Shown one piece after another: positions 1 to 19,535 of a DNA stretch of 20,000 bases. This DNA is from Angustibacter luteus. GTDB taxonomy: Bacteria; Actinomycetota; Actinomycetes; Actinomycetales; Angustibacteraceae. Where the stretch lies: the NCBI RefSeq assembly GCF_039541115.1, contig NZ_BAABFP010000007.1:606584-626583 (forward strand), read 5' to 3'. Positions within the stretch are counted from its first letter, which is position 1, and every line of letters begins with the position of its first letter. The notes below the pieces were generated by a model. It saw only the letters and a program-made list of their open reading frames with translations. It was not told the origin of the DNA and ran no database searches. The position numbers and the translations under genes are program-made.

Positions 1-788
1 CGGGGCTGTCCGACGTGTTCGCCCGGTACGCCTGCGACCACCTGTTCAGCCAGGTCGACGAGCTCGGCACCCGGGACGGCTCGAACCTGACGGTGGACGG
101 CTACGAGTTCGCGCCGTCGTTCTCGATCTGGACGACGATCGAGGAGTGCCTGAACCCGCCCGTGGTGTGGGAGGCCGACCGCGGCTGGTTCACCACGGCG
201 CCGTTCAGCGAGCCCGAGGTCTTCGACTTCCCGGACGGCATCGGTCCCGTGGAGTGCGTGAACGTGGAGCACGAGGAGGTGCTGCTGATGCCGCGCTGGC
301 TCGACGCGAAGCGAGTCACGTTCAAGTACGGGCTGGGCGAGGAGTTCATCGACGTCCTGCGCACGCTGCACAAGCTGGGACTCGACTCGACCGAGCCCGT
401 GCGGGTCGGTGGGGTGCAGGTCAGCCCGCGGGACGTCGTCGCCGCGTGCCTGCCGGACCCGGCGGGGCTGGGGGACCGGATGCACGGCAAGACCTGCGCC
501 GGGCTGTGGGTCACGGGCACCGGGACGGACGGGCAGCCGCGCGAGGTGTACCTCTACCACGTCGTCGACAACGACTGGTCGATGCAGGAGTACGGCGCGC
601 AGTGCGTGGTGTGGCAGACCGCGGTCAACCCCGTGGTCGCGCTCGAGCTGCTCGCGACGGGCGCGTGGTCCGGGTCGGGTGTGCTCGGTCCCGAGGCCTT
701 CGACGCCGTGCCGTTCCTGGACCTGCTCCGCGACGGCTACGGGTCACCGTGGGGGCTGCGCGAGCAGACCCCGGGCCCAGCCAGCTAG
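1..788 (+). CDS. Saccharopine dehydrogenase family / carboxy(nor)spermidine dehydrogenase-like oxidoreductase, 5'-truncated by the window edge
   Basis: Frame is open from base 3 (GLSDVFARYA...). Recognisable C-terminal motifs FSIWTTIEECLNP, VEHEEV, TFKYGL and GVLGPEAFD. TAG stop overlaps the gabT stop (CTAG 785-788). Confidence 0.8.
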   Translation, partial: GLSDVFARYACDHLFSQVDELGTRDGSNLTVDGYEFAPSFSIWTTIEECLNPPVVWEADRGWFTTAPFSEPEVFDFPDGIGPVECVNVEHEEVLLMPRWLDAKRVTFKYGLGEEFIDVLRTLHKLGLDSTEPVRVGGVQVSPRDVVAACLPDPAGLGDRMHGKTCAGLWVTGTGTDGQPREVYLYHVVDNDWSMQEYGAQCVVWQTAVNPVVALELLATGAWSGSGVLGPEAFDAVPFLDLLRDGYGSPWGLREQTPGPAS

Positions 789-2146
789 TCGCCGGCGACC
801 GCGGACTCGAGGACGTCGAGCGCCTCGGCCAGCAGGGCGTCGTCGATCACCAGCGGGGGCAGGAAGCGCAGCACGTTGCCGAAGGTGCCGCAGGTGAGCG
901 TCAGCACACCCTGCTGGTGGCAGGCAGCGCTGATCCGGGCGGCCTCGGCCGGGTCGGGGTCGGTGCTGCCGGGCACGACCAGCTCGATGGCGACCATCGC
1001 GCCGCGGCCCCGGACGTCGCCGATCTGCGCGTGCTGACCGGCCAGTGCGGAGAGCCGGTCCAGCATCGTCCGACCGATGGCGGCGGCACGGCCCGCCAGG
1101 TCGTCCTCCTCGAGCGACTCCAGGGCGCCCAGCGCCGCGGCGCAGGCGACCGGGTTGCCGCCGTAGGTGCCACCGAGGCCGCCGGCGTGCACCGCGTCCA
1201 TCAGCTCGGCGCGGCCGGTGACCGCAGCGAGCGGCAGGCCCCCCGCGATGCCCTTGGCGGTCGTGATCAGGTCCGGCACCACGCCCTCGTCGTCGCATGC
1301 GAACAGCGTGCCGGTCCGGCCGAACCCGGTCTGGATCTCGTCGGCGACGAAGACGATGCCGTTCTCGGTGCACCACTGCGCGATGGCCGGCAGGAAGCCC
1401 GGCGCCGGGACGACGAAGCCGCCCTCGCCCTGGATCGGCTCGATCACGACGGCGGCGACCTCGTCGGCGCCCACCTGCTTGTCGATGACCGAGATCGCGC
1501 GACGCGCGGCCTCCGCGCCGCTGATCGGCACCGGCTCGCGGAACGGGTAGCTCATCGGGGCCCGGTAGACCTCGCCCGCGAACGGGCCGAAGCCGTGCTT
1601 GTACGGCATGGACTTCGCCGTCATGGCCATCGTGAGGTTGGTGCGGCCGTGGTAGGCGTGGTCGAAGACGACCACGGCGTCGCGGCCGGTGGCCACCCGG
1701 GCGATCTTGACCGCGTTCTCCACCGCCTCGGCGCCGGAGTTGAACAGCGCCGACTTCTTCGCGTGGTCGCCGGGGGTGAGCCGGGCCAGCGCCTCGCAGA
1801 CCGCGACGTAGCCCTCGTACGGGGTGACCATGAAGCAGGTGTGGGTGAACTGCTGCACCTGCTCGGTGACCCGGGCGACGACCCGCGGGTTGGCGTTGCC
1901 CACGTTGACCACGGCGATGCCCGAGCCCAGGTCGATCAGCGAGTTGCCGTCGACGTCCTGCAGCACGCCACCACCGGCGCGGGCGATGTAGACCGGCAGG
2001 GTGGTCCCGACGCCGTCGGCGACTGCCGCCTGCTTGCGCGCGTGCAGCGCACGCGAGCGCGGCCCGGGGATCTCGGTCAGCAGCTCGCGGCGCTGAGGAA
2101 CTCCGTCGGCGACGGCGGGGGACGTGGACTCGCGCAGGTCGGTCAT
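785..2146 (-). CDS. gabT: 4-aminobutyrate aminotransferase (class III PLP-dependent)
   Basis: Motifs NSGAEAVENA, AYHGRT, IEPIQGEGG, DEIQTGFGRTG, TAKGIAGG (PLP lysine) and GGTYGGNP. Start taken at ATG 2146 (MTDLRES...), 453 aa. The ORF-track extension to 3904 is the antisense shadow of gabD. Confidence 0.92.
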   Translation of the reverse strand: MTDLRESTSPAVADGVPQRRELLTEIPGPRSRALHARKQAAVADGVGTTLPVYIARAGGGVLQDVDGNSLIDLGSGIAVVNVGNANPRVVARVTEQVQQFTHTCFMVTPYEGYVAVCEALARLTPGDHAKKSALFNSGAEAVENAVKIARVATGRDAVVVFDHAYHGRTNLTMAMTAKSMPYKHGFGPFAGEVYRAPMSYPFREPVPISGAEAARRAISVIDKQVGADEVAAVVIEPIQGEGGFVVPAPGFLPAIAQWCTENGIVFVADEIQTGFGRTGTLFACDDEGVVPDLITTAKGIAGGLPLAAVTGRAELMDAVHAGGLGGTYGGNPVACAAALGALESLEEDDLAGRAAAIGRTMLDRLSALAGQHAQIGDVRGRGAMVAIELVVPGSTDPDPAEAARISAACHQQGVLTLTCGTFGNVLRFLPPLVIDDALLAEALDVLESAVAGD

Positions 2147-2293
2147 GGCTCGCAGACTAGCCACGAGGCCGACCGGCCCGCACCGCCAGAGTGCGGCCCA
2201 CGGGCCCGGACGGCTGACAGTGTGACGCCCGACCCACCCGTGCGCTGGACTAGCGTCGAGCCGCGACCACCCGACCACCCGAAGGAGCCCGCG
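2147..2293. promoter_or_regulatory. Divergent gabT/gabD promoter region
   Basis: Minus-strand TAGTCT (2154-2159) lies 7 nt before the gabT ATG (leaderless geometry). Plus-strand TAGCGT (2251-2256) lies upstream of the gabD RBS. Confidence 0.5.
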
Positions 2294-3757
2294 GTGACCC
2301 AGCAGGACGAGCGACGCGTCGTCGAGGCCGTACCCCAGGGCCTGTTCATCGGCGGTCAGTGGCGGCCGGCGTCCGACGGCGCCGAGCTGAAGGTGCTCGA
2401 CCCCTCCACCGAAGAGGTGCTGACCACCGTCGCCGACGCCTCGGTGGCCGACGGCCGCGAGGCGCTGGACGCTGCGGTTGCCGCGCAGGCGGGGTGGGCC
2501 GCCACGCCGCCGCGCGACCGCGGCGAGATCCTGCGCGCGGCCTACGAGAAGGTCACCGAGCGCGCGGAGGACCTCGCGCTGCTGATGACGCTCGAGATGG
2601 GCAAGCCGCTGAAGGAGGCGCTGGGCGAGATCACCTACGGCGCCGAGTTCTTCCGGTGGTTCTCCGAGGAGGCCGTGCGCATCTCCGGTCGCTGGTCGAC
2701 GGCCCCGAACGGCGCCACCCGGCTGCTCACCATGAAGCAGCCCGTGGGGCCGTGCCTGATGATCACGCCCTGGAACTTCCCGCTCGCGATGGGCACCCGC
2801 AAGATCGGCCCCGCCATCGCGGCCGGCTGCACGATGGTGGTCAAGCCGGCGTCCCAGACCCCGCTGACCATGTACGCGCTCGCCCAGATCCTCACCGAGT
2901 GCGGGCTGCCGGACGGCGTCCTCAACGTGGTGACGACGTCCCACACCGGCGACGTGATGGAGCCGCTGATCCGCGACCCCCGGCTGCGCAAGCTGACCTT
3001 CACCGGGTCCACGCCGGTCGGCCGCCGGCTGGTCGAGCAGTCGGCCGAGGGCCTGCTGCGGGTGTCGATGGAGCTCGGTGGGAACGCCCCGTTCATCGTC
3101 TTCGGCGACGCCGACCTGGACCGCGCCGTGGACGGCGCCATGCTCGCCAAGATGCGCAACATCGGCGAGGCCTGCACCGCGGCGAACCGGTTCATCGTGC
3201 ACGAGTCGGTCTCGGCCGAGTTCTCCGCCCGGCTGGCCGAGCGGATGGGCGCGCTCACCGTCGGTCGGGGGACCGAGGACGGCGTGGACGTCGGTCCGCT
3301 GATCGACGGCACCCAGCGGGACAAGGTGGCCGAGCTCGTCCAGGACGCCGTCGACCTCGGGGGCAAGGTCCTCACCGGTGGGGGAGCACTGGACGGCAAG
3401 GGCTTCTACTTCGCGCCCACCGTGCTGGGCGACGTCCCGACCCAGGCGCGGGTCTTCGGCGAGGAGATCTTCGGCCCGGTCGCGCCGATCACCACCTTCG
3501 CCACGGACGACGAGGCGCTGGCGCTGGCCAACGACACCGAGTACGGGCTGATCGCCTACGCCTTCACCCGCGACCTGGCCCGAGCCCTCGCCGTCGCCGA
3601 GGGCCTGGAGACCGGCATGGTCGGGATCAACGCGGGGGTGGTGTCCAACCCGGCGGCGCCGTTCGGCGGCGTCAAGGCCAGCGGGTTCGGTCGCGAGGGC
3701 GGCGCCGAGGGCATCGAGGAGTACCTCGAGACCAAGTACGTCGGCATCGCCCCCTGA
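2294..3757 (+). CDS. gabD: NAD(P)-dependent succinate-semialdehyde dehydrogenase
   Basis: Aldehyde dehydrogenase motifs ITPWNFP, FTGST, MELGGNAP, GEAC (catalytic Cys), EEIFGPV and PFGGVKASG. AAGGAG RBS at 2282-2287 before GTG 2294. Divergent from gabT. Confidence 0.92.
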   Translation: MTQQDERRVVEAVPQGLFIGGQWRPASDGAELKVLDPSTEEVLTTVADASVADGREALDAAVAAQAGWAATPPRDRGEILRAAYEKVTERAEDLALLMTLEMGKPLKEALGEITYGAEFFRWFSEEAVRISGRWSTAPNGATRLLTMKQPVGPCLMITPWNFPLAMGTRKIGPAIAAGCTMVVKPASQTPLTMYALAQILTECGLPDGVLNVVTTSHTGDVMEPLIRDPRLRKLTFTGSTPVGRRLVEQSAEGLLRVSMELGGNAPFIVFGDADLDRAVDGAMLAKMRNIGEACTAANRFIVHESVSAEFSARLAERMGALTVGRGTEDGVDVGPLIDGTQRDKVAELVQDAVDLGGKVLTGGGALDGKGFYFAPTVLGDVPTQARVFGEEIFGPVAPITTFATDDEALALANDTEYGLIAYAFTRDLARALAVAEGLETGMVGINAGVVSNPAAPFGGVKASGFGREGGAEGIEEYLETKYVGIAP

Positions 3758-3768
3758 CATCCCCGGCG

Positions 3769-3891
3769 TCACCCGTTCGGCCCAATCGCTCGGCGTGTCG
3801 GTGGCTGGCTGCCCGGGAAAGTCGAAGTTCCCGTGCTGGACTAGTCCGTTCGGGTGCATTCGGGTCCGATCGCACTGACCCGAACGGGTGA
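3769..3891. promoter_or_regulatory. Three related 16-bp palindromic operator-like sites resembling the BldM box TCACcCgnncGgGTGA
   Basis: TCACCCGTTCGGCCCA (3769-3784), TAGTCCGTTCGGGTGC (3842-3857) and TGACCCGAACGGGTGA (3876-3891; one mismatch to the consensus). Confidence 0.5.
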
Positions 3892-4011
3892 GATGCTCAC
3901 CCACAGGTAGTGAGTTTCGGTAACTTCCTGCGACGTGACGCTGCGTGCGGCTTCAATCGCTCACAGCGATACAGCCCGCCCGGGGCTGCCCCGCATCGCT
4001 GAGGAGTGCCG

Positions 4012-4116
4012 ATGAAGAAGAAGTCCCCTGTCAGCGCGGTCGTTCGCCTCAGTGCGGGCGTGCTCCCCGTGATCACCCTGGTGTCGGTGCTCGGCGCCGG
4101 CTCCAAGTGGTGGTGA
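4012..4116 (+). CDS. 34-aa small peptide, signal-peptide-like precursor (MKKKSPVSAVVRLSAGVLPVITLVSVLGAGSKWW)
   Basis: GAGGAG RBS at 4001-4006, 5 nt before the ATG. Basic N-terminus, hydrophobic core and GSKWW tail. Absent from the ORF track because of its size. Confidence 0.8.
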   Translation: MKKKSPVSAVVRLSAGVLPVITLVSVLGAGSKWW

Positions 4117-4175
4117 TCGCCGTGCTGACGCGCAGCGAAGACACGCAGTACCTGCCCGGTTACAAGTGGGTCTAG
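4113..4175 (+). CDS. Putative 20-aa peptide (MIAVLTRSEDTQYLPGYKWV)
   Basis: GTG start overlaps the upstream TGA (GTGA). Ends in the same G-x-K-W-x-stop pattern as the upstream peptide. Third codon positions are mostly G/C. Confidence 0.45.
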   Translation: MIAVLTRSEDTQYLPGYKWV

Positions 4176-4197
4176 GGCCTCGCGCCCGCTGACACCC

Positions 4198-6363
4198 ATG
4201 AAGCGACCCTCGCCCCTCGCGCTCTACGTCGCCTGCGTCGCCCTGCTGGGCGCGCTCGTGGCGGCGTGGAGCCTGTGGGGTGTCGGTCTCGCGGAGCTGG
4301 CCCGTACCGCCCCGAACCCGGTGTGGTTCCTGGCGGTCGGGCTGGTTCTGGGCGAGCTCATGCCGATCCCCGTGGCCCGCGGGGACGACGAGACGTCCAA
4401 CGTCACGATGTCGACCACCTTCGCCGTGGCGCTGGTGACCACCGGACCCTTCGCCCTGCTCCTGCTGGTGCACACCATGGCCGTCGCGATCGACGACCTG
4501 CGCACCCGCCGGAGCGTGGCCAAGGTGCTGTTCAACTTCGGCCAGTACGCCGTGTCGTTGGCCGCCGCCCGCGCGGCGTTCTGCGTCATCACCGGCACGA
4601 GCTTCCACGCCGGCTACACCCCGCTGGACGCCAGCGAGCTGCCCGCGGCCCTCGTCGCGGGCTTCACGTTCATCATGCTCAACAACGGTCTCGTCGCCGT
4701 CGTCGTCGCCCTGGCCACCCGCCAGCCGGTGCTGGCGATGCTGCGCGAGGACCTCGCATTCAAGCTCGAGACGTCCAGCGTGCTGCTCGGCCTGGCGCCG
4801 GTCGCCGCCGTGCTCGCCGAGATGAGCGGCTGGCTCCTACCCCTGCTCGCGCTGCCTGTCCTGGCGGTCCGCCGCTCCGCGGCGCTGGCCGTGGCCCGGC
4901 AGTCCCAGGCCCTGCGCGACGCCCTGACCGGACTGGGCAACCGCGAGCTCTTCTTCGGCCGCGCCGAGCGCATGCTCGCCGCCTACGAGCGCACCGAGAG
5001 TCCCTTCGCGGTGCTGATGATCGACCTCGACCACTTCAAGGACATCAACGACACGCTCGGCCACCAGGTCGGTGACCGGGTCATCCAGACGGTCGGTGCC
5101 CGCATCGCGCACGCCGGCGGCCCCGACGGCTGCGTCGCCCGGCTCGGTGGCGACGAGTTCGCCATCACCATCCCCGGCGTGGACGTCGCGCAGGCGAGCG
5201 CCGCCGCCGAGACGCTGCTGTCCGACATCGTCCGTCCGCTGCACGTCGGCGGCATCCGGATGGTCATCCACGCCAGCGTCGGCATCGCCATGGCCGAGCC
5301 CGGCGTCGACGTCACCACGCTGATGCAGCGGGCGGACATCGCCCTCTACGAGGCCAAGCGGGACCGCGCCCGGTGGTGCCTGTACGACGTCCAGTCCTCG
5401 ACGGCGACCCCCGAGCGCCTCGGGCTGCTCGCCGACCTGCGCGACGCGATCGACCTGCGGCAGATCTCCGTGCACTTCCAGCCGCAGGTCGCGCTCAACG
5501 GCGGCCGCGTCTTCGGCGCCGAGGCGCTCGCGCGCTGGGACCACCCCGAGCGCGGCTCGGTCGCGCCCGAGGAGTTCATCGCCCTGGCCGAGCACGCCGG
5601 GCTCATCGACCAGGTGACCGACATCGTCCTCGAGGAGTCGCTGGACGCGCTGGCCAGCTGGTCCCAGATGGGCATCGCCGCCCGCGTCTCGGTGAACCTG
5701 TCGGCCCGGCAGCTGGCCGACCTGGGGCTGCCCGAGCGGTTGCGTGACGCGTTGCGCCGGCACGGTGTCTCGCCGGGCCAGCTGACCGCGGAGGTGACCG
5801 AGGGCAGCATCATGGGCGACCCCCGGCGGGCCGCGCAGGTGCTGCACGAGCTCCGCCAGGAGGGCATCCGGATCGCCGTCGACGACTTCGGCACCGGCTA
5901 CTCCTCGCTGGCCTACCTGCAGCGCCTGGACCTCGACGAGCTGAAGATCGACCGCAGCTTCGTGCAGTCGATGGGCGCCGTCTCGCGGGACGACGTGCTC
6001 GTCCGCTCGATCATCGAGCTCGCGCACAACCTCGGCCTGTCGGTGGTCGCCGAGGGCGTCGAGACCCCGGGGCAGGTCGAACGACTGCGCGAGCTGCAGT
6101 GCGACGCCGCCCAGGGCTACCACCTCGGTCGGCCGATGGACCGCGAGATGATGACCGCCTGGCTGCGTCGCGACACCATGCTCGAGCCCCTGCGGCTGCC
6201 CGAGGAGGACCACAGCGAGGACACCCTGCACGGTCTCGTGCAGGGGCTGGCCCACCTCGAGCCGTTCGGCCCGGCCGAGGCCGTGCCCGCCGTCCCGGCG
6301 ACCGGTCGGTCCGGCAAGCCGACCCACCTGCGCGCCGTCCGGTCCGGACAGGGAACGGCGTGA
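4198..6363 (+). CDS. Membrane-anchored diguanylate cyclase/phosphodiesterase (multi-TM N-terminal domain + GGDEF + EAL)
   Basis: About 230 aa hydrophobic N-terminus. GGDEF motifs DALTGLGNR, DLDHFKDINDTLGH and RLGGDEF (GGDEF at 5146-5160). EAL at 5521-5529, followed by DDFGTGYSS, LKIDRSF, VAEGVE and QGY. Confidence 0.95.
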   Translation: MKRPSPLALYVACVALLGALVAAWSLWGVGLAELARTAPNPVWFLAVGLVLGELMPIPVARGDDETSNVTMSTTFAVALVTTGPFALLLLVHTMAVAIDDLRTRRSVAKVLFNFGQYAVSLAAARAAFCVITGTSFHAGYTPLDASELPAALVAGFTFIMLNNGLVAVVVALATRQPVLAMLREDLAFKLETSSVLLGLAPVAAVLAEMSGWLLPLLALPVLAVRRSAALAVARQSQALRDALTGLGNRELFFGRAERMLAAYERTESPFAVLMIDLDHFKDINDTLGHQVGDRVIQTVGARIAHAGGPDGCVARLGGDEFAITIPGVDVAQASAAAETLLSDIVRPLHVGGIRMVIHASVGIAMAEPGVDVTTLMQRADIALYEAKRDRARWCLYDVQSSTATPERLGLLADLRDAIDLRQISVHFQPQVALNGGRVFGAEALARWDHPERGSVAPEEFIALAEHAGLIDQVTDIVLEESLDALASWSQMGIAARVSVNLSARQLADLGLPERLRDALRRHGVSPGQLTAEVTEGSIMGDPRRAAQVLHELRQEGIRIAVDDFGTGYSSLAYLQRLDLDELKIDRSFVQSMGAVSRDDVLVRSIIELAHNLGLSVVAEGVETPGQVERLRELQCDAAQGYHLGRPMDREMMTAWLRRDTMLEPLRLPEEDHSEDTLHGLVQGLAHLEPFGPAEAVPAVPATGRSGKPTHLRAVRSGQGTA

Positions 6364-6367
6364 TCCG

Positions 6368-6910
6368 GTGCTGGTCGCCGCGCTCGTAGCGCTCGCCGTC
6401 CTGACCGTCCCGCTCAGCGGTGGTCGGTGGTCCGCGCTGGGCTCGCTCCGGTTGCGACACAGCTGGTTGCTGTGGATGGCGCTGCTCGGTCAGGTGCTGG
6501 CCCTCGAGGGGCCCGACCTGGGTGGTTGGGCCGCTCTGCTGCACGTCGGCACGTACCTGCTGGCGGGCGCCTTCGTCGTCCTCAACCGCGCCATCCCGGG
6601 CCTCTGGCTGATCGCGGCCGGCGGCTTCCTCAACGGCATCACCATCGCGCTGAACGACGGGACGCTGCCGGCGTCGGCGCACGCGCTGCGCGCCGCCGGG
6701 CTGCCGGCCGACCACCACCAGTTCGTGAACTCGGGCGTGGTCGGCGGAGCGCACCTGCCGTGGCTCGGCGACGTGTTCGCCTGGCCACAGCCGCTGCCGC
6801 TGGCCAACGTGTTCAGCGTGGGCGACGTCCTGCTGGTCGTGGGGGCGTTCTGGGCGATCCACCGGCTGGCCCGGCGCAGCCCGGCCGAGCCGCAGGTCGC
6901 CCTCGCGTGA
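6368..6910 (+). CDS. DUF5317-like integral membrane protein
   Basis: 180 aa, multi-TM. The pattern N...G..LN...I..N.G.(M/L)P...WLGD.F...NVFSVGD matches my recollection of DUF5317. Starts 4 nt after the GGDEF-EAL stop. Confidence 0.75.
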   Translation: MLVAALVALAVLTVPLSGGRWSALGSLRLRHSWLLWMALLGQVLALEGPDLGGWAALLHVGTYLLAGAFVVLNRAIPGLWLIAAGGFLNGITIALNDGTLPASAHALRAAGLPADHHQFVNSGVVGGAHLPWLGDVFAWPQPLPLANVFSVGDVLLVVGAFWAIHRLARRSPAEPQVALA

Positions 6911-6922
6911 CACGCTGACCGC

Positions 6923-8080
6923 ATGAGTCGCAGCGTGGTCCTGCTCGGGTCGACCGGGTCCGTCGGCGAGCAGGCCGTCGACGTCATCACCCGCAACCCC
7001 GACCGCTTCACCGTCACCGCCCTGGCCGCGGCCGGGTCCGACGTCCGGCTGCTCGCGGAGCAGGCGGCCCGGCTGCAGGTCCAGCAGGTCGCGGTCGCCC
7101 GCGAGGACCGCGCGCCGGAGCTGCGCGCCGCCCTGGAGGCGGCCGGTGCCGGCGCCGAGGTGCTGGCCGGGCCGGACGCCGCCGAGCAGCTGGCCGCCCG
7201 CGGTGACGACCTGGTGCTGAACGCGATGACCGGCTCCATCGGGCTGCGTCCCACGTTGGCGGCGCTGGCCGCCGGCAGCACGCTCGCGCTGGCCAACAAG
7301 GAGTCGCTGATCGTCGGCGGCCCGCTGGTCAAGGCCGCCGCCGCTCCCGGCCAGATCGTGCCGGTGGACTCCGAGCACTCCGCGCTCGCGCAGTGCCTAC
7401 GCGGCGGTCGGGAGTCCGAGGTGGCCCGCCTGGTGCTGACGGCCAGCGGCGGGCCCTTCCGTGGCCGGCCGCGGCACGAGCTGGACGACGTCACCCCGGC
7501 CCAGGCGCTGGCCCACCCCACCTGGGACATGGGCCGGATGGTCACCACCAACTCGGCGACGCTGGTGAACAAGGGCCTGGAGGTCATCGAGGCGCACCTG
7601 CTCTTCGACCTTCCGTTCGAGCGCATCGCCGTCGTGGTGCACCCGCAGTCGATCGTGCACTCGATGGTCGAGTTCACCGACGGCTCGACGCTCGCCCAGT
7701 GCTCGCCGCCGGACATGCGGCTGCCCATCGCGCTCGGCCTGGGCTGGCCGGACCGGGTGCCCGGCGCGGCCGCGGCCTGCGACTGGAGCACCGCGAGCAC
7801 CTGGGAGTTCCTGCCGCTGGACGACGAGGCGTTCCCCGCCGTCGCCCTGGCCCGCCGGGTGGGGTCGGCGGGGTCGACGTACCCGGCGGTGTACAACGCG
7901 GCCAACGAGGAGTGCGTGGACGCCTTCCACGACGGCCGGATCCGGTTCACCGCGATCGTCGACACGGTGACGCAGGTGGTCGACGAGCACGAGCCGCCCG
8001 CCGGCCCCCTCACCCTGACGGACGTGCTCGAGGCCGAACGGTGGGCGCGGGCTCGAGCGCATGAGAAACTGGGAGTATGA
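6923..8080 (+). CDS. dxr: 1-deoxy-D-xylulose-5-phosphate reductoisomerase
   Basis: Motifs [46 protein letters not shown] and [10 protein letters not shown]. Confidence 0.97.
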
Positions 8081-9495
8081 CCGTCCTGCTCTACGCCCTC
8101 GGCGTGCTGCTGTTCGCCGTGGGTCTCGCGGCGTCCATCGCGCTGCACGAGATCGGGCACCTCGTCCCCGCCAAGAAGTTCGGCGTCAAGGTCACCCAGT
8201 ACATGGTGGGCTTCGGCCCGACGGCCTGGTCGCGCCGGCGCGGTGAGACCGAGTACGGCGTCAAGTGGGTCCCGCTGGGCGGCTACATCCGGATGATCGG
8301 CATGTTCCCGCCGAAGCCCGGACAGGCGCCGGAGGAGGCGCTGCGCGCCACGTCCACCGGGCGGGTCGGGATGATGCTGGACCAGGCGGTGCAGTCCCGC
8401 GCCACCCGTCGTGGCACGGCGACCGGTGAGCGTCGGGTGGGCATGGCCGAGGCCGCCCGCCAGCAGTCGATGGACGAGATCCAGCCCGGCGACGAGGCCC
8501 GCGTCTTCTACAAGCTCCCCGTGCACCAGAAGATCATCGTGATGCTCGGCGGTCCCACGATGAACCTGCTGATCGGCACCGTCCTGCTGGCGGGCGTCTA
8601 CATGGCCTACGGCCTGCCGGTCGACAAGCCCGGAGCGCAGGTCGCCGCGGTCAACGAGTGCGTCGTCAGCGCGGACGCGGCCCAGACCCAGACCACCTGC
8701 GCCGCAACCGATCCGAAGACCCCCGCGTACGAGGCCGGGCTACGCCCCGGGGACACCATCGTGGCCGTCGCCGGCGAGGACGTGCAGAACAGCGCGGCCG
8801 TCGGGCGGCTGATCCGGCCGCGGGTCGGCCAGACCGTGCCCGTCGTCGTCGTCCGGGACGGCGAGCGACTGACGCTGCAGATCACCCCGATCGAGAACAC
8901 CGTCACCAAGGTGGACGGCGACGGCCAGCCGGTGCTCGGCGCCGACGGAAAGGCCGAGACCGTGCGCGCCGGCTTCCTCGGCGTGAGCACCCAGACCCCC
9001 TCGGTGGTCGAGCGGCAGTCGATCACGCAGGTCCCCGGCGAGGTCGGGTCGGCGCTGTCGGCCACCGCCGCCGTCGTGGTGCGGATCCCGCAGAAGATGG
9101 TCGGCGTGGTGCAGACCATGAGCTCGGGCGAGCGGGACCCCAACGGCCCGATCAGCGTCGTCGGCGTCGGCCGGATCGCCGGCGAGGTGGCCAGCGCGGA
9201 CGGCGCGTGGTCAGCCAAGCTCGCCACGATGCTCGGCGTCCTCGCCTCGCTGAACTTCGCGCTGTTCGTGTTCAACCTCATCCCGCTGCTGCCGCTGGAC
9301 GGCGGACACGTGGCGGGGGCGATCTGGGAGGGTCTGCGACGCACGTGGGCGCGGCTGCGGCACCGGCCGGACCCCGGCCCCGTGGACGTCGCGCGCCTGC
9401 TGCCCATCGCCTACGGCGTCGGGACCGTGCTGATCGTGATGTCCGTGATCCTGATCTACGCCGACATCGTCAATCCCATCAAGCTGCTCGGCTGA
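8077..9495 (+). CDS. rseP: M50 family site-2 zinc metalloprotease with PDZ domain (RseP/Rip1)
   Basis: HEIGH (HExxH) and [12 protein letters not shown] motifs, PDZ-like [15 protein letters not shown] overlap with dxr and canonical dxr-rip1-ispG position. Confidence 0.92.
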
Positions 9496-9550
9496 CGCCG
9501 GTTTCGACGGCGCGTTCTGCGCTGCGGCGACGGCGGGCGATACTGGAGGC

Positions 9551-10693
9551 ATGAGCGTCTCCCTCGGTATGCCCGCGGCGCCGCCGCCCGTGCTGGCCCC
9601 CCGTCGTCCCACCCGCAAGATCAAGGTCGGCAAGGTCGACGTCGGCGGTGACGCGCCGGTCAGCGTGCAGTCGATGACGACCACGCTGACCTCCGACGTG
9701 AACTCGACGCTGCAGCAGATCGCCGAGCTGACCGCGGCCGGCTGCGACATCGTCCGGGTGGCCTGCCCGAGCCAGGACGATGCGGAGGCGCTGCCCGCCA
9801 TCGCGCGCAAGTCGCAGATCCCGGTGATCGCGGACATCCACTTCCAGCCCAAGTACGTGTTCGCGGCGATCGACGCCGGCTGCGCCGCCGTCCGGGTCAA
9901 CCCGGGCAACATCCGCAAGTTCGACGACCAGGTCGGGGCGATCGCGAAGGCGGCCAAGGACGCCGGCGTCTCGATCCGGATCGGCGTGAACGCCGGCTCC
10001 CTCGACCCGCGCCTGCTGGAGAAGTACGGCAAGGCGACGCCCGAGGCGCTCGTCGAGTCCGCCGTCTGGGAGGCCTCGTTGTTCGAGGAGCACGACTTCC
10101 ACGACTTCAAGATCTCGGTCAAGCACAACGACCCGGTGGTCATGGTGCGCGCGTACGAGCTGCTCTCCGAGCGCGGGGACTGGCCGCTGCACCTCGGGGT
10201 GACCGAGGCCGGCCCGGCGTTCCAGGGCACGATCAAGTCCGCCACCGCGTTCGGTGCGCTGCTCTCGCGCGGCATCGGGGACACGATCCGGGTCTCGCTG
10301 TCGGCCCCGCCGGTCGAGGAGGTCAAGGTCGGCATCCAGATCCTGCAGTCGCTGAACCTGCGGCCGCGCAAGCTCGAGATCGTCTCCTGCCCGTCGTGCG
10401 GGCGGGCTCAGGTCGACGTCTACAAGCTCGCGGAGGAGGTCACCGCCGGGCTCGAGGGCATGGAGGTGCCGCTGCGCGTCGCGGTGATGGGCTGCGTGGT
10501 GAACGGGCCGGGCGAGGCCCGCGAGGCCGACCTGGGGGTGGCGTCCGGCAACGGCAAGGGGCAGATCTTCGTCCGCGGCGAAGTCGTCAAGACGGTCCCC
10601 GAGGCGATGATCGTGGAGACGCTGATCGAGGAGGCCATGCGCATCGCCGAGACGATGGAGGCCGAGGGCGAACCCACCGTCAGCGTCTCGTGA
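9551..10693 (+). CDS. ispG: (E)-4-hydroxy-3-methylbut-2-enyl-diphosphate synthase
   Basis: Motifs [43 protein letters not shown] and [10 protein letters not shown]. Confidence 0.97.
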
Positions 10694-10741
10694 CTCGCTT
10701 GGTGGTCGACACGCGGCGGTCCGGCACGGCACGCTGAGCCC

Positions 10742-11590
10742 GTGCTGCGAACTGCCACCTCTCTGCGCACCCTCGGGCGCGCCGACCGCGACGACGTGCT
10801 GGCGCTGTGCGCCCAGGCACCCGTGGTCAACGTCATGGTCGCCGAGCGGGTGGAGCTGGTCGGCTCGGAGCCCGTCCGGCTGGGCGGTGAGCTGTGGGGC
10901 ATGTTCGAGCAGGGGGAGCTGACCAGCGCGTGCTGGTCCGGCGCGAACCTGATCCCCGTCGGTCCCTGCAGCGATGCGGCCCTGGACGCCTTCGCGAGCC
11001 GGGCCAAGCGGTCCGGCGTCCCGTACTCGTCGATGTTCGGCGAGGCCGAGCACGTCCTCGGACTGTGGTCCCGGTTGCAGGCCGCGGGCTGGCGCGCGCG
11101 GGACGTGCGCGCCTGTCAGCCGCTGTTCGCCACTGACCGGGTACCCGACGTCGCGCCGGACCCCCTGGTCGGCCGGGCCGGTCCGGACGACCTGCTGACC
11201 GTGCTCCCGGCGTCCGTCGCGATGTTCACCGAGGAGGTCGGCTACTCGCCGATGGCGGCGGACGGTGGACTGTCCTACCGCCGGCGGGTGGCGGAGCTGC
11301 TGCGTCAGGGGCGGATGTTCGTGCGCCGCGACGGCGACGGCGTGGTGTTCAAGGCGGACCTGGGGTCGGTCAGCTCCTCGGTCGCGCAGGTGCACGGGGT
11401 CTGGGTGGACCCCCGCTACCGCGGCCAGGGCATCGCCGCGCCGGCCATGGCGGCCGTGGTCGCCGCGGCGCTGCGCTCGGACGCCCGCACCGTCTCGCTC
11501 TACGTGAACGACTACAACCACCGCGCGCTCGCCGTGTACTCGAAGGTCGGCTTCACCCAGGTGGGCACCTTCGCGACGGTCCTCTTCTAG
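10742..11590 (+). CDS. GNAT family N-acetyltransferase (DUF4081-GNAT type)
   Basis: Acetyl-CoA motif VWVDPRYRGQGIA, plus SLYVNDYN..A..VY.KVGF and AMFTEEVG. Usual neighbour of ispG in actinobacteria. Confidence 0.85.
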   Translation: MLRTATSLRTLGRADRDDVLALCAQAPVVNVMVAERVELVGSEPVRLGGELWGMFEQGELTSACWSGANLIPVGPCSDAALDAFASRAKRSGVPYSSMFGEAEHVLGLWSRLQAAGWRARDVRACQPLFATDRVPDVAPDPLVGRAGPDDLLTVLPASVAMFTEEVGYSPMAADGGLSYRRRVAELLRQGRMFVRRDGDGVVFKADLGSVSSSVAQVHGVWVDPRYRGQGIAAPAMAAVVAAALRSDARTVSLYVNDYNHRALAVYSKVGFTQVGTFATVLF

Positions 11591-11601
11591 GTCTGACCGC
11601 A

Positions 11602-11689
11602 CACCCCAACCCCGCGGTGATCATGCACAGTCGCCCCGACACGTCGACGCGTCGGGGCGAACGTGCATGATCACCGCGGGGTTGGGGTG
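11602..11689. repeat. 88-bp near-perfect palindrome (REP-like element)
   Basis: 27-bp perfect arms (11602-11628 / 11663-11689), inner 10-bp arms (11631-11640 / 11651-11660) and a self-complementary CGTCGACG core. Confidence 0.9.
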
Positions 11690-11718
11690 GCCGAATGGGG
11701 AGTTGTGCCGGGGGCCGC

Positions 11719-11750
11719 TTGACGGAGGCGACTTAGGATGCTAGCAATAT
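11719..11750 (+). promoter_or_regulatory. Putative promoter/operator of the RHH-VOC-MFS operon
   Basis: TTGACG at 11719-11724. AT-rich TAGCAATAT overlaps the palindrome TGCTAGCA (11739-11746) just before GTG 11755. Confidence 0.5.
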
Positions 11751-11754
11751 AGCC

Positions 11755-11916
11755 GTGAGCGACGTCGAAGCCGTGCCGAAGGTGCAGTTCAACGTCTACC
11801 TGCCGCCTGGGCTGGTGCGCCGCATCAAGCACCTGGCGGTCGACGAGGGGGCGAGCCTGTCCGCACTCGTCGAGCGCGCGCTCACCGCGTACGCCGACGC
11901 CGAGGAGGCCTCGTGA
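11755..11916 (+). CDS. CopG/ribbon-helix-helix transcriptional regulator, 53 aa ([53 protein letters not shown])
   Basis: Beta-strand QFNVYLP followed by two helices ([23 protein letters not shown]). GTGA overlap with the next gene. Absent from the ORF track. Confidence 0.85.
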
Positions 11917-12506
11917 ACGACGTGACCCTGCGTCCGGTGCGCTTCACGGACGACGTCGCCGGCACCCGCGCGTACTTCGAGCAGCAGGGGCTCGCCGCCC
12001 GGGTCGTCGCGGTCGGGGGCGGCTGGGTCGACCTGGTCGCCGGCGGCGGCGGGATGCTGGCGCTGCACGACGCGGCGTCCAGCTCGACCGAGCAACCCAG
12101 CGGACGCACGACCCTGTCCGCCGAGTGCCAGGACGCCGAGGCGTTGGCCGAGCGGTTGCGCGAGGCCGGGTTCGACGACGCCACCGTGTACGACGAGGGC
12201 TATGGCCGGGTGCTGGTGGTCACCGACCCCGACGGCGGTCTGGTCCAGGTCGACGAGCGCCAGGACGACCTCCACGGCTACCACCACCTCGACGTCTCCG
12301 GTGCCGATCCGGCCGTGTCCGTGCGGGTGGTCCTCGACTCGCCGGACGTGGCTCGCTACCGGGCCTTTCTCGAGGCGCTCGGGCTCGCGGCCGCGGTCGA
12401 GCTGCACGAGCAGGAACCGCAGGACGTGCGGGCGACCGCGCCGGACGGCCGCCCCCGCCGCCCGGCCGTCGTCCGGCTGCAGCTGTCGGCCCGTCCGCGC
12501 CCGTGA
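11913..12506 (+). CDS. VOC/glyoxalase-family protein
   Basis: Patterns [14 protein letters not shown] and [27 protein letters not shown] at 11902-11908. Confidence 0.75.
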
Positions 12507-13771
12507 GCGACCCCACGGTCGCCGACTCGCTCGGCCGAATGCTGCGCGCGGACCGCGACTTCCGGCGCTACTTCGTCGCCCGCATCGTGTCCCTCGGCGG
12601 CGCGGTGGTCACGGTGGTGGCCCTGCCCGTGCTGGTCTACCGGCTGAGCGGCTCGGCCTTGCTGACCGCGTCCGTCACCGCACTGGAGGCGCTTCCCTAC
12701 CTGCTCTTCGGCCTGGTCGCCGGCGCACTGACCGACCGCTGGGACCGACAACGCGTCATGGTGTCCAGCGACCTGGTGAACGCCGTGCTCATCGGGTCGA
12801 TCCCGCTCGCGTGGTGGCTGGGCGCGCTGACCGTCTGGCACGTGCTCGTCGTGGCCTTCTGCGCGCAGGCGGTGTTCACGTTCTTCGACGGAGCGAACTT
12901 CGGCGCCCTTCCGGTGCTGGTCGGCCGCGAGCGGGTCGCGGTGGCCAGCGCCGGCGTCTGGGCCGTGGCGAGCGTGGTGGAGGTCGTGGCACCCCCCGCG
13001 GCGGCGACGGCGATCGGCGTGCTCGGCCCGGCGAACCTCCTCGTCGTGGACGCGCTCAGCTTCGTCGCGTCCGCACTCGCCGTGCGGGGCATCAGCCGCG
13101 CCCTGCACGACCGCGACCGGCATCGCGAGCCGGCGACCGTGCGGTCGGTGCTGGACGACGTCCGCGAGGGTCTGCGGTTCCTGCTCGCCCATGCGGGCGT
13201 GCGCACCATGACCCTGGTGGGCACGCTGCAGTCCGCGGCGGGCGGCGGGTTCGTGGCCCTCATGGTGGTGTGGGCGGACCGCACGCTGGGCATCGGGACC
13301 TCCGGGCTGCGGTTCGGCGTGCTCTTCGGCGTGTGGGGCATCGGCGGTGCCCTCGCCGCGGTCCTGCTGCCGCGGCTGCTGTCCTGGCTGGGACCCGAGT
13401 GGCTGTGCCTGTGGGCGCTACCCGCCTCGGCCGTGCTCGGCGTGCTCACCGCACTCGCACCCACCTGGCAGCTGGGCGCGCTCGGCCTGGGGTGCTGGGG
13501 CGTGGCGTACTCGCTGGTGGTGGTCAACTCGATCACCTACCGCCAGATGGTCACGCCGGAGCCGCTGCTCGGGCGGGTCAACACCACGGGCCGGATGCTG
13601 TCCTGGGGCCTGGGCTGGACCGGCGGCGCGCTGGTCGCCGGCCTGCTCGCGACCCACGCCGGCACTCGCGCGGCGCTGGTCGCGATGGCCTCCCTGAGCC
13701 TCGTTGCCGTCCTGGTGGCCTGGACGTCGCCACTGCGCCGGGCGTCCCGCCCGCGGCGGATATCCGTGTGA
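12503..13771 (+). CDS. MFS transporter (MFS_3/DHA3-like efflux)
   Basis: About 12 hydrophobic segments, MFS motif A ([13 protein letters not shown]) and [18 protein letters not shown] 12503 overlaps the VOC stop; ATG 12539 is an alternative start. Confidence 0.88.
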
Positions 13772-13827
13772 GGTCACCGGGGCCCGACGACTACGCTCGG
13801 GTGCCACCCCCGAACCAAGGAGACCCC

Positions 13828-15588
13828 GTGATCGCGCGCATGTCGACGTTGTTCCTTCGCACCCTGCGTGAGGACCCGTCGGACGCCGAGGTCCCCAGCC
13901 ACCGCCTGCTGGTCCGCGCCGGCTACATCCGTCGCGCGGCGCCGGGCATCTACACCTGGCTGCCGCTGGGCCTTCGGGTGCTGCGCAAGGTCGAGGCGAT
14001 CGTCCGGGAGGAGATGGACGCGGCCGGCTTCCAGGAGCTGCAGTTCCCGGCCCTGCTGCCGCGCGAGCCGTACGACGCGACCGGCCGCTGGACGGAGTAC
14101 GGCGACAACATCTTCCGCCTGAAGGACCGCAAGGGCGGCGACTACCTGCTCGGCCCGACGCACGAGGAGATGTTCACCCTCACGGTCAAGGACCTGTACT
14201 CGTCCTACAAGGACCTGCCGCTCTCGCTCTACCAGATCCAGAACAAGTACCGCGACGAGGCGCGTCCGCGCGCGGGCCTGCTGCGCGGGCGCGAGTTCAT
14301 CATGAAGGACTCGTACTCCTTCGACGTGGACGACGCCGGGCTGCAGCGCTCCTACGAAGCGCACCGGGCGGCGTACATCAAGATCTTCGACCGGCTCGGC
14401 ATGGACTACGTGATCGTCGCTGCCATGTCCGGCGCGATGGGCGGCAGCGCCAGCGAGGAGTTCTTGGCCAACGCGGTCAACGGCGAGGACACGTACGTGC
14501 GCTCGGCGGGGGGCTACGCCGCCAACGTCGAGGCGGTGGTCACCGTGCCGCCGCCCGCGGCGGACGCGACCGGCATCCGGGCCGCACACGTCGAGGACAC
14601 CCCGGACACCCCGACGATCGACTCGCTGGTGCAGGCCGCCCGCGGGCTCTTCCCGGACCGCGAGTGGTCGGCCGCGGACACGCTGAAGAACGTCGTCTTC
14701 ATGCTGACCCACCCGGACGGCAGCCGGGAGCCGCTCGTCGTCGGCCTGCCCGGCGACCGGGACGTGGACACCAAGCGCCTGGGCGCGCAGCTCGAGCCCG
14801 TCGAGGCCGAGGTGTTCACCGACGCCGACTTCGCGAAGTACCCGGCGCTGGTCAAGGGCTACATCGGCCCGCAGGCGCTGGGCGAGGCCAGCGAGAGCGG
14901 CATCCGGTACCTCGTCGACCCGCGCGTCGTCGACGGCACGGCCTGGGTGACCGGCGCCAACGTCGCGGGCCGGCACGTCTTCGACCTCGTGGCCGGCCGC
15001 GACTTCACGGCCGACGGGACGATCGAGGCCGCCGAGGTGCGGGCCGGCGACCTCGCACCGGACGGCTCGGGTCCGCTCGAGCTGGCCCGCGGCATCGAGA
15101 TCGGCCACATCTTCCAGCTCGGCCGCAAGTACGCCGAGGCGCTCGGGCTGAAGGTGCTGGACGAGAACGGCAAGCAGGTCACCGTGACCATGGGCTCCTA
15201 CGGCATCGGGGTGTCCCGCGCGGTCGCCTCGGTCGCGGAGAACAGCCACGACGACCTCGGTCTGGTGTGGCCGCGGGCGATCTCGCCGTACGACGTGCAC
15301 GTGCTCGCGACCGGCAAGGACGAGGCGATCTTCCAGCGGGCGCAGCAGCTGGCCGACGAGCTCTCGAGCCGGGGTCTGGACGTGCTCTACGACGACCGGC
15401 CGAAGGTCTCGCCCGGGGTGAAGTTCAAGGACTCCGAGCTGATCGGGGTGCCGACGATCCTGGTCGTGGGCAAGGGGCTGGCGGACGGCGTGGTCGAGCT
15501 CAAGGACCGCGCGAGCGGGCAGCGCGAGGACGTCCCGCTGGCCGACGCGGTCGAGCGGGTCGTGGCCGTGACCCGCGTGGCCGGCTGA
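13828..15588 (+). CDS. proS: Proline--tRNA ligase (bacterial type with INS editing domain)
   Basis: [21 protein letters not shown], motif 2 [28 protein letters not shown] and MGSYGIG. AAGGAG RBS at 13817-13822 and TACGCT -10-like element at 13792-13797. Confidence 0.97.
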
Positions 15589-15598
15589 CCCGCACCCG

Positions 15599-16396
15599 TT
15601 GAGCTGGCTCGGGCTGCCGGCGGACGTCGGCACGGGCGCCGTCGTCCTCATGCTGGTGGCCGCCCTGGTCGCCGGCTGGGTGGACGCCGTCGCCGGCGGT
15701 GGTGGGCTGGTGCAGCTGCCCGCGCTCCTCATCGGCCTGGGCCCCGGCAGTCCGGCGATCGCGTCGCTGGCGACCAACAAGCTCGCCTCGATCTGCGGGA
15801 CGGCGACCAGCTCGGTCACGTACTACCGGCGGGTGCATCCGGACCTGCGCACGGCGTTGCCGATGGCGGGCTTCGCCCTGGGCGGGGCGCTGCTCGGCGC
15901 CACCGTCGCGTCGCGCCTGCCCTCGGACTGGATCCGGCCCATCGTGATCGTCGCGCTGGTGGCTGTGCTGGCGTACACCATCCGGCACCCGAGCCTGGGG
16001 GCGGAGACGGTGCTGCGGCACTCGGGACGGCGGCACCACGTGACCACGGGCGGCATCGGCTTCGTCATCGGGGTGTACGACGGTGCGATCGGGCCGGGCA
16101 CCGGGTCGTTCTTGGTGTTCGCCCTGGTCGGCTGGGTCGGCTACGCCTTCCTGGAGGCCAGCGCGAAGGCGAAGATCACCAACTTCGCGACCAACCTCGG
16201 CGCGCTGATCGTGTTCGCCCCGCAGGGCGTGGTGCTCTGGCGGCTGGGCCTGCTGATGGGCCTGGCCAACCTGCTGGGCGGCTACGTCGGGGCGCGCACC
16301 GCCGTCGCCCGGGGCCACCGCTTCATCCGGGTCGTGTTCGTCGCCGTGTCGTCCGTGCTGATCGTGCGGCTCGGCTACGACGTCGTCCAGGGCTGA
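15599..16396 (+). CDS. TauE/SafE (TSUP) family membrane transporter
   Basis: Motifs AGWVDAVAGGGGLVQLP, ATNK, YDGAIGPGTGSFL and AKITNFATN. Start codon uncertain (TTG). Confidence 0.85.
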   Translation: MSWLGLPADVGTGAVVLMLVAALVAGWVDAVAGGGGLVQLPALLIGLGPGSPAIASLATNKLASICGTATSSVTYYRRVHPDLRTALPMAGFALGGALLGATVASRLPSDWIRPIVIVALVAVLAYTIRHPSLGAETVLRHSGRRHHVTTGGIGFVIGVYDGAIGPGTGSFLVFALVGWVGYAFLEASAKAKITNFATNLGALIVFAPQGVVLWRLGLLMGLANLLGGYVGARTAVARGHRFIRVVFVAVSSVLIVRLGYDVVQG

Positions 16397-16415
16397 CCGG
16401 CACGCCGACGACGGC

Positions 16416-17479: not shown

Positions 17480-17572
17480 GTCACGAATCCTCGCACGTCC
17501 CGGTTGTGGGTAGGGTTGTGGTGCGGTGACGGGGTTCGCCGCACCAATCGAGAACAGCGGCGGGAGGCTCCA

Positions 17573-19188: not shown

Positions 19189-19535
19189 CCTCGAGGAACG
19201 GCCCCGCGCCCGGACGCGGTAGAGTGTCCGGGACCGAGCGCGCAGCGGAGGCGCTCACGCACGTGCCTGTCCGGCGCTGCGTGGGTTGCCGACAGCCGGG
19301 TGAGCGGTCTGTCCTCCTGCGGTTCGCCGTGGCCGAGGTCGACGGCCAGCAGACCGTCGTCCACGACCCCGCCCGGACCCTGCCGGGGCGCGGCGCCTGG
19401 CTGCACCCGGACGAGGACTGCTGGCAGCTGGCCCTTCGCCGTTCGGCGTTCGGTCGGGCGCTGCGGTCCCCGGCGAGGCTCGACCAGGTGGGAATCAGCG
19501 AGGTCATCGCCGCGCTGAGCCCTGAGCACGACTGA
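19185..19535 (+). CDS. ylxR: YlxR/DUF448 family RNA-binding protein
   Basis: [13 protein letters not shown] and PGRGAWLH motifs, located between nusA and infB. True start may be downstream (TAGAGT -10-like element at 19220-19225). Confidence 0.85.

Follow-up and report, generated by a model that had tools for sequence, protein, structure and literature searches.

Introduction

Peptide-signaling systems of the RRNPP type, among them Phr/Rap, SHP/Rgg and ComS/ComR, use precursors in which a leader is followed by a short, linear and often aromatic C-terminal peptide that is cut outside the cell and read inside it. To our knowledge, peptide pheromone systems have barely been described in the Actinomycetota. 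Here we report a candidate for such a system in Angustibacter luteus, encoded by four adjacent genes in a stretch of 20,000 nucleotides (the window; positions 606,584 to 626,583 of the forward strand of contig NZ_BAABFP010000007.1): two small open reading frames (ORF1 and ORF2), a multi-transmembrane GGDEF-EAL protein that is the putative receptor, and a DUF5317 membrane protein that is the candidate processing peptidase.

The described proteins closest to the receptor are the MASE9 enzymes, which include TM1467 of T. maritima and HdgA/HdgB of S. venezuelae and for which a pairing with GGDEF-EAL is already listed by Galperin and Chou (bioRxiv 10.1101/2021.11.05.467447). Streptomyces RmdB, a transmembrane (TM)-GGDEF-EAL phosphodiesterase, is reported to have eight predicted TM helices in residues 1-238 (PMC13232838), and the 5TMR-LYT receptors BtsS, YpdA and KinB are described as having a seven-helix S-component fold with the N-terminus and pocket outside (PMC11109136). 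The original prediction for the window knew of no characterized system with the architecture found there, and our literature searches for a cassette of DUF5317, peptide and cyclic di-GMP (c-di-GMP) enzyme likewise found no description in print, within a coverage that lacked most subscription papers. The trio of peptide, receptor and DUF5317 is most likely an undescribed peptide-signaling system. As to its mode of action we favor, at a probability of roughly 0.4, a three-part module in which the precursor is cut by DUF5317 behind x-G-A and its tail is read from the cytoplasm, making the system Phr/SHP-like rather than agr-like.

Results

The cassette and its peptide genes

The tightly packed, co-directional unit foreseen between gabD and dxr was borne out in coordinates and strands for all four genes: they follow a gabD-like gene that ends at 3757, lie on the plus strand at the positions originally given, and are succeeded by dxr, which begins at 6923, downstream of the DUF5317 gene. 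The word "inserted" also seems apt. A close relative (L001) has the cassette at the same place, and gabD adjoins dxr without a cassette in one (L366) of the five same-order genomes examined.

ORF1 (4012..4116, stop included; 34 aa) has an ATG start behind the Shine-Dalgarno (SD) sequence GAGGAG (4001..4006), and the small ORF with a strong ribosome-binding site that had been predicted is real and conserved. Its product is a class-i (signal-peptide-like) precursor with a basic N-terminus (MKKK), an uncharged core, L-G-A and the tail GSKWW, the chain ending ...VLGAGSKWW. A short Trp-rich C-terminal signal had been anticipated, and the G-x-K-W-x tail is indeed the most conserved part of the peptides. 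ORF2 (4107..4175, plus strand; 20-22 aa) can start at in-frame GTGs at 4107, 4110 and 4113, the last of which overlaps the ORF1 stop as GTGA. It has neither an SD sequence of its own nor a leader or membrane-spanning core, its C-terminus reads ...LPGYKWV at 4175, and by position it matches the second peptide gene of orthologous cassettes. Both peptides lack Cys and terminate at the tail. Because ORF1 and ORF2 account for two of the three occurrences of G-x-K-W-x(0-2)-stop when the entire 4.16-Mb genome is read in six frames, we regard the cassette peptides as more than chance. Over the last 22 peptide codons, 30 distinct relatives differ by 0.29, 0.22 and 0.48 at codon positions 1, 2 and 3. 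ORF1 matched no Pfam or NCBIfam family, and an ESM Atlas search with it returned three unnamed clusters of 32-36 aa at 0.88, which we treat as a lead only.

Conservation of the trio in near and distant relatives

A search with the DUF5317 protein yielded 35 near loci, which are not independent because more than half belong to one genus. A GGDEF-EAL gene lies directly upstream of DUF5317 in 34 of them, and in 30 one to three short ORFs ending Lys-Trp-x lie upstream of the receptor; of the remaining five loci, four end at a contig edge and one is masked by N. We also inspected 40 distant Actinomycetota loci, chosen for high-scoring DUF5317 on long contigs rather than at random. A MASE9-like domain lies within ~4 kb of DUF5317 in 31 of these, and a signal-peptide-like ORF of 24-32 aa is present in 24, all of them among the 31, with one apparent false positive in the small-ORF scan across all 40. 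Both expectations that accompanied the original prediction, conserved upstream small ORFs (30/35 near, 24/40 distant) and co-occurrence with TM domains fused to GGDEF/EAL/HD-GYP (34/35 near, 31/40 distant), were thereby upheld. The MASE9-like partners in the distant loci are HD-GYP, GGDEF-EAL, HisKA or HisKA_3. A c-di-GMP enzyme as receptor output therefore holds for the GGDEF-EAL protein of the window but not as the sole output, since fusions to HisKA and HisKA_3 kinases indicate that the module is not limited to c-di-GMP.

The trio also occurs in records of Subdoligranulum and Natranaerobius (Bacillota) and of Euzebya; a Nonomuraea record holds DUF5317 alone. In the Natranaerobius plasmid record (L137:3460-5258) the receptor and DUF5317 genes are each split by frameshifts, through sequencing error or decay. 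PF17248 (DUF5317) matched 121 of the 301 Actinomycetota genomes sampled, plus Thermus and Thermotoga controls, and the system would on this count be common in the phylum; the genome tallies include the unpublished genomes G001, G048, G088, G120 and G329, and no peptide claim rests on these.

When the peptides were aligned, 53 of 54 showed x-G-A followed by a tail of 4-7 residues, a frequency that is partly by construction because the distant-locus filter required a small-residue pair; separate near- and distant-locus surveys met x-G-A without requiring it. G-A is preceded by V, A, G, L or T. Trp is present in 46 of the 53 tails and absent from seven, and none of the 53 starts with Cys. No Pfam or NCBIfam family describes the 54 peptides scanned: TIGR04223 matched one, only at E 0.27, and a lipoprotein signal model gave a weak match to three (best E 0.012). 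Seven of the 24 distant loci have the peptide gene antisense to the receptor, and in L175 and L211 it comes last in the operon. It occurs in two or three identical or near-identical copies in L008, L033, L073 and L076, with a period of 178 bp and a degenerate fourth copy in L033. In the Demequina loci L009, L012, L020 and L035, two to four tandem MASE9-like-GGDEF-EAL paralogues are grouped around a single peptide gene and a single DUF5317.

The peptide alignment being too variable for a locus search, we used a degenerate DNA pattern, which detects V-G-A-G-x-K-W-x ends only, for a reverse search in which 79 of 120 metagenome stretches were examined. A MASE9-like or DUF5317 gene lay near 18 of the 22 matches with a hydrophobic leader and near none of the 57 without one, where a hydrophobic leader means a mean Kyte-Doolittle value of at least 1.7, a threshold set post hoc (at 1.2 the figures are 18/25 and 0/54).

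The receptor membrane domain

The receptor gene (4198..6363) encodes 721 aa, comprising a MASE9-like membrane domain (aa 1-235; 4198..4902) and the GGDEF and EAL domains (4903..6363), which Pfam places at aa 238-390 and aa 413-646. The multi-TM GGDEF-EAL protein of the original prediction is thus confirmed, with an eight-helix membrane domain and both output domains. The Pfam MASE9 model (PF20972) matched aa 86-221 with 23.2 bits against a cut-off of 24.3 (E 7e-5), and many aligned homologues exceed the cut-off. In agreement with the description of MASE9, eight TM segments, two of them short, lie N-terminal to the output domains and carry conserved aromatic and Asn/Ser residues; the conserved positions of the membrane domain are E53, S70, S72, F112, N113, Q116, Y117 and N162. 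The catalytic motifs are intact (GGDEF at aa 317; EALAR, DDFGTGYSSL and EGVE in the EAL domain), as expected of an active diguanylate cyclase and phosphodiesterase, and the GGDEF domain has no match to an RxxD I-site.

Residues 1-235 were modeled with a predicted local distance difference test score (pLDDT) of 95.5. In a comparison with 48,161 chains (VIA), the best 15 matches were all S-components from transporters of the energy-coupling factor (ECF) type (Z 8.1-14.9), led by NikM (Z 14.9; root-mean-square deviation 3.7 over 191); the best 12 in a Foldseek search were likewise S-components, with a best E of only 3e-3. The model thus suggests that the membrane domain adopts the fold of an ECF S-component, to which helices H0 and H7 are added. 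Six of its helices, in residues 35-213, correspond to S-component H1-H6, and an additional helix follows H6 ahead of the cytoplasmic GGDEF domain. Across 59 sequences, Lys plus Arg average 2.1, 3.8 and 2.3 in loops L1, L3 and L5, as against 0.5, 0.0, 0.5 and 0.2 in L0, L2, L4 and L6. Because of this bias and the extra helix before GGDEF, the pocket side of the modeled receptor appears to be cytoplasmic, which would mean an inverted S-component fold. In NikM, the N-terminus is outside and the first nine residues are reported to fill the S-component pocket (PMC3945884). The outer loops of MASE9 are described as poorly conserved (bioRxiv 10.1101/2021.11.05.467447), which agrees with a pocket on the cytoplasmic side. 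Co-prediction of the membrane domain with ORF1 scored 0.02 against a mark of 0.32; controls were not folded, and we use the result neither way.

DUF5317 as a candidate peptidase

The DUF5317-like membrane protein was found as predicted, behind a gap of 4 nt after the receptor gene (6368..6910, plus strand; 180 aa), with a family match of E 5e-25 and a model pLDDT of 92.7. In an alignment of 84 DUF5317 sequences, for which the loci mined included L056 (G120), residues N73, G85, N89, N96, P101, L133, D135 and S150 are invariant, and G152, D153 and G159 are conserved in 83. D135 and D153 lie in, or at the end of, one loop that the charge bias places outside; LspA (PF01252) likewise has two conserved Asp at the outer membrane face. 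The conserved DUF5317 positions align in order with the invariant Gly, Asn, Gly, Asp, Asp and Gly of LspA (six positions), and hhalign gave the pair a probability of 11-24%, with a score above 100 column shuffles but equal to that of a reversed control. PF01252 itself matched none of 100 DUF5317 members, a profile search of the PDB gave no clear match, and ESM Atlas returned DUF5317 clusters only. We put the odds that DUF5317 has peptidase activity at about even. Among 60 long DUF5317 homologues, 52 are fusions to major facilitator superfamily (MFS) transporters, two to tetratricopeptide repeats (TPR) and one to GGDEF-EAL, and the MFS fusions point to a product that is transported. Fused forms, in which DUF5317 is joined to MFS (in one form together with HEAT repeats), to TPR repeats or to GGDEF/EAL, are those of L071, L082, L138 and P0121-P0180.

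Probable translational coupling and the possible role of ORF2

In 25 of the 30 near loci with peptides, mostly of one genus, a GTG inside the AAG-TGG of the last peptide shares the reading frame of the receptor without an intervening stop. Among 18 further same-class DUF5317 loci, 15 are orthologous cassettes. Peptides are present in 14 of these, in 13 as a pair whose second member is full-length in five, intermediate in one and leaderless in seven (one duplicates L003), and the last-peptide GTG is in the receptor frame in 12 of the 14. All four coupled relatives that we folded have strong hairpins past the last peptide stop (z -3.9 to -6.4). These are GC hairpins, 11-13 nt past the stop in L002, L003, L004 and L027 and inside the probable N-terminal coding region of the receptor, and they may limit re-initiation or read-through. 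In the window and L001 this overlap is lost: the receptor starts from an ATG of its own, and past the last peptide stop the window shows no significant hairpin (z 1.2). An 8-codon frame (4166..4192, plus strand) that opens with a GTG inside the Lys-Trp codons of ORF2 and stops 5 nt before the receptor ATG, an arrangement shared with L001, is probably, judged by sequence, what is left of the overlapping start that relatives use.

The original suggestion of precursor peptide(s) fits ORF1 and needs correction for ORF2. Leaderless second peptides recur in orthologous cassettes, and we therefore view ORF2 as a recurring form. Because it is leaderless, and because its Lys-Trp codons in those cassettes hold a GTG in the receptor frame that is probably the receptor start, ORF2 may serve in part as a translational relay and not as a second precursor, and in this clade conservation of its tail as a ligand would not be separable from conservation of a start region.

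A second leader type at hdgA-like loci

The window genome has one DUF5317 gene and four MASE9-like loci. One of the latter (G000:C2 ~367100-368700, minus; L262:2324-5238) is a tandem MASE9-like HD-GYP pair, hdgA/hdgB-like and without an adjacent DUF5317. Upstream of it lies an unannotated 23-aa ORF behind AAGGAG that ends PGWTWMNG, the first amphipathic-leader peptide found. A small ORF whose tail bears Trp lies upstream in all of the best 30 hdgA-like loci from 201 genomes of the class, and likewise in 15 of 20 weaker matches. Most of these peptides are ~20 aa long, with an amphipathic leader that includes an internal Glu and is not long enough to cross the membrane. Three loci have an added leaderless second ORF, and in L351 and L355 the sole peptide is leaderless, with 13-16 residues. 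Most hdgA-like receptors have their own SD-like start. We rejected the notion that the W-x-W tail is kept at these loci merely as an overlapping start codon (in frame in four of 27, with three not parsed), as well as the notion that amphipathic-leader peptides lack DUF5317, which is adjacent in 16 of the 30 genomes, elsewhere in eight and not found in six. Judging by these sequences, the constant part is the Trp-bearing tail, not the leader, and DUF5317 is usual, not obligatory.

The tail occurs twice in one ORF upstream of an HD-GYP gene in L266 (G165; 100% complete, no DUF5317 match) and L285 (G313), as RGWGWGG and PNWKW, an arrangement like that of a multi-core precursor. A hypothetical gene of ~220-240 aa, absent from the window cassette, lies upstream of the peptide at HD-GYP-type loci (L262:5464-6192, plus; L137:2472-3137). 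The other MASE9-like loci of the window genome include a MASE9-like-GGDEF-EAL paralogue without a visible upstream peptide, lying between what we take to be ligA-like and gatC-like genes (G000:C2 ~212900-214850, minus; L263); a MASE9-like profile matches the gene after the ligA-like gene both here and in G039. We presume from synteny that this paralogue is RmdB-like. At G000:C7 ~120600 (minus; L264) a long protein is encoded in which other domains, GGDEF/EAL among them, come after a MASE9-like domain; no upstream peptide was detected. In five genomes searched with the receptor membrane domain, a single sequence found no match and a profile matched three.

Flanking sequence

A non-coding block at 3934..3975 (plus strand), near-identical in L001, is a probable promoter or regulator site; a promoter/terminator scan found no sigma-70-type site or other match, and an Rfam scan of 3700-4300 found none. 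By translation only, window positions 785-3757 hold gabT-like and gabD-like genes, and 6923-19535 hold dxr, membrane metalloprotease, ispG, GNAT, MFS, proS, rimP and nusA-like genes.

Discussion

We favor the cytoplasmic-tail model because the presumptive cutting site would lie outside and the pocket inside, because DUF5317 is frequently fused to transporters, and because the tail outlasts the leader. According to this model, ORF1 is translated as a 34-residue product, a step that its conservation shows. The leader would insert ORF1 with its N-terminus in and its C-terminus out, so that x-G-A comes to lie at the outer face of the membrane and the Asp pair of DUF5317 may cut there, freeing the 5-residue tail GSKWW. 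The tail would then get to the cytoplasm either by re-import, as the many fusions of DUF5317 with MFS transporters suggest, or directly from products that are not exported or lack a leader, for instance ORF2. There it would fill the pocket of the modeled S-component fold, predicted to open to the cytoplasm, and so shift the balance of GGDEF and EAL and hence c-di-GMP. In relatives, the overlapping start and the hairpin that follows it would tie receptor synthesis to peptide synthesis. The identical tandem copies in L008, L033 and L076, together with the antisense genes of the distant loci, argue that the peptide acts in trans.

Several observations weigh against the model. The pocket orientation is predicted from helix mapping by alignment ranges and from charge bias. 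Fold searches of the PDB with DUF5317 matched no solved fold and did not list LspA, and because hhalign scored DUF5317 against LspA (28.0) the same as against reversed LspA (28.5), homology to LspA is not established. The DUF5317 protein of the window has no transporter fusion, and the cassette has no transporter gene. Within ~4 kb, nine of the 40 distant DUF5317 loci lack both receptor and peptide, and Lys-Trp in near relatives is possibly also constrained as an overlapping start codon (25/30 loci). Peptide genes were detected upstream of none of the seven extra receptor paralogues in L009, L012, L020 and L035, were found in none of the four genus g7 loci nor in L343, and were not detected at two of the three other MASE9-like loci of the window genome. 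Finally, six of the 30 hdgA-like genomes, four of them 97-100% complete, keep the peptide without a DUF5317 match.

Of the other explanations, the one that fares best, unlikely as we consider it, is that the whole peptide is an uncleaved micro-protein, a membrane or membrane-surface subunit that sets receptor activity without any diffusible signal, with DUF5317 serving as a co-subunit, a chaperone or a protease that terminates the signal by removing the peptide. Class-i peptides, with an uncharged stretch of ~17 residues and a Lys-Trp end that is interfacial, would suit such a role, but N-in/C-out insertion would put their conserved tail opposite the predicted pocket side. The amphipathic-leader peptides could sit uncut on the inner leaflet with the tail at a cytoplasmic pocket, and six genomes retain peptides without a DUF5317 match. 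Receptor synthesis appears coupled to the peptide gene, as would be expected of subunits. What a subunit does not readily explain is the conservation of a small-small residue pair before the tail across phyla, the multi-copy tails and tandem gene copies that fit precursors, or the MFS fusions (52/60) that suggest a transported product.

Quite unlikely, in our estimation, is a scheme in which the tail is freed outside and binds an outward-facing receptor site, as the autoinducing peptide does on AgrC. The precursor anatomy and the outside location of the conserved DUF5317 loop are in its favor, and 5TMR-LYT receptors of S-component fold are reported to bind ligand near the outer face (PMC11109136). 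In MASE9, however, H6 is followed by one more helix than in 5TMR and the basic residues lie on L1/L3/L5, its outer loops are poorly conserved by the published account (bioRxiv 10.1101/2021.11.05.467447), and leaderless peptides would be unable to get outside in this way. A cytoplasmic pocket appears to fit export, processing and re-import, or intracellular sensing, better than sensing at the surface.

Less likely again is that the ORFs are cis-acting leader peptides that control translation or transcription of the receptor by coupling, by stalling or by attenuation dependent on Trp, their products being without a role in trans. The Lys-Trp GTG lies in the receptor frame in 25/30 near loci and 12/14 further orthologous cassettes, hairpins follow the last stop in each of the four coupled relatives folded, and the Trp codons are close to the stop; such control may be the main role of ORF2. 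As a general account it is opposed by the hdgA-like loci, where only four of 27 parsed tails offer an in-frame start and most receptors have an SD-like start of their own, by peptide genes that are antisense (7/24 distant loci) or operon-final (L175, L211), by the 7/53 tails without Trp, and by the window itself, which has no significant hairpin (z 1.2) and a receptor with its own ATG. Least probable is that housekeeping signal peptidase I frees the tail while DUF5317 modifies, binds or helps transport the peptide: the residues found before G-A (V, A, G, L or T) are compatible with the small-residue -3/-1 rule of that enzyme and no fold or profile search supports DUF5317 as a protease, but its six invariant or nearly invariant positions follow the order in LspA, the Asp pair is on the outer side in both, and a lipoprotein signal model finds a weak match (best E 0.012) in three of the 54 peptides.

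If the cytoplasmic-tail model is right, the cassette offers a testable candidate for the ligand of MASE9 sensors in the form of a synthesizable tail of 4-7 residues, along with a receptor pocket and a candidate maturase with two mutable aspartates. Use of the S-component fold upside down by a receptor would be new for that fold. A broader proposal, possible but in our view unlikely, is that inverted MASE9 peptide receptors of S-component fold, DUF5317 proteins as new membrane aspartyl peptidases and precursors of 13-53 residues together make up a signaling system of Actinomycetota and Bacillota in which receptors without a peptide listen. Were this true, HdgA/HdgB- and RmdB-like receptors that lack a peptide would be such listeners, which would provide a candidate input to a Streptomyces developmental phosphodiesterase. 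The authors of the hdgA/hdgB deletions suggested that activating signals were missing under the conditions they tested (PMC6205966).

How, then, does the cassette compare with described systems? With the MASE9 enzymes it shares an eight-helix membrane domain fused to GGDEF-EAL or HD-GYP, whereas the MASE9 section of the published account mentions no peptide gene, DUF5317, S-component fold or kinase output, and its main text does not mention DUF5317 (bioRxiv 10.1101/2021.11.05.467447). RmdB has the same order of eight TM helices, GGDEF and EAL; the RmdB-like locus of the window genome, so called from presumed synteny, differs in having neither an upstream peptide nor DUF5317, and the window gene is a separate paralogue. 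The 5TMR-LYT receptors likewise employ an S-component fold for sensing, in fusions with kinases or GGDEF/EAL, but MASE9 has eight helices, the opposite loop charge bias and a pocket side predicted to be inside; PF07694 did not match the receptor at E 0.1, and the main text of the 5TMR-LYT report contains no mention of "MASE" (PMC11109136).

The agr system (AgrD/AgrB/MroQ/AgrC) also combines a short precursor with a membrane-targeting leader, membrane processing protein(s) and a multi-TM receptor in one locus (PMC9388083). The agr-like logic of the original prediction holds to that extent, in that precursor, membrane protein and multi-TM receptor are co-located. Its defining features fail: the cassette peptides lack an internal Cys ring and a C-terminal follower, the pocket side appears cytoplasmic, the outputs include c-di-GMP enzymes, and Pfam and NCBIfam scans of the four cassette products matched no AgrB, MroQ or AgrC family. 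DUF5317 resembles LspA in size, TM count and the ordered G-x3-N, Asp, F-x3-D and Gly, and differs from it in lacking an Asp-Arg pair after the Asn, in a 30-40-residue insertion and in substrates without Cys at +1. The RRNPP systems share with the cassette a leader and a short linear C-terminal peptide, which here too is proposed to be cut outside and read inside; the cassette receptor is instead a membrane-embedded enzyme or kinase rather than a soluble TPR protein (the window receptor has no TPR match), and its candidate maturase is dedicated and of an unrelated family. By the features tested, then, the cassette belongs to none of the agr, RRNPP or 5TMR families, and what it most resembles is a Gram-positive linear-peptide system built from unrelated parts.

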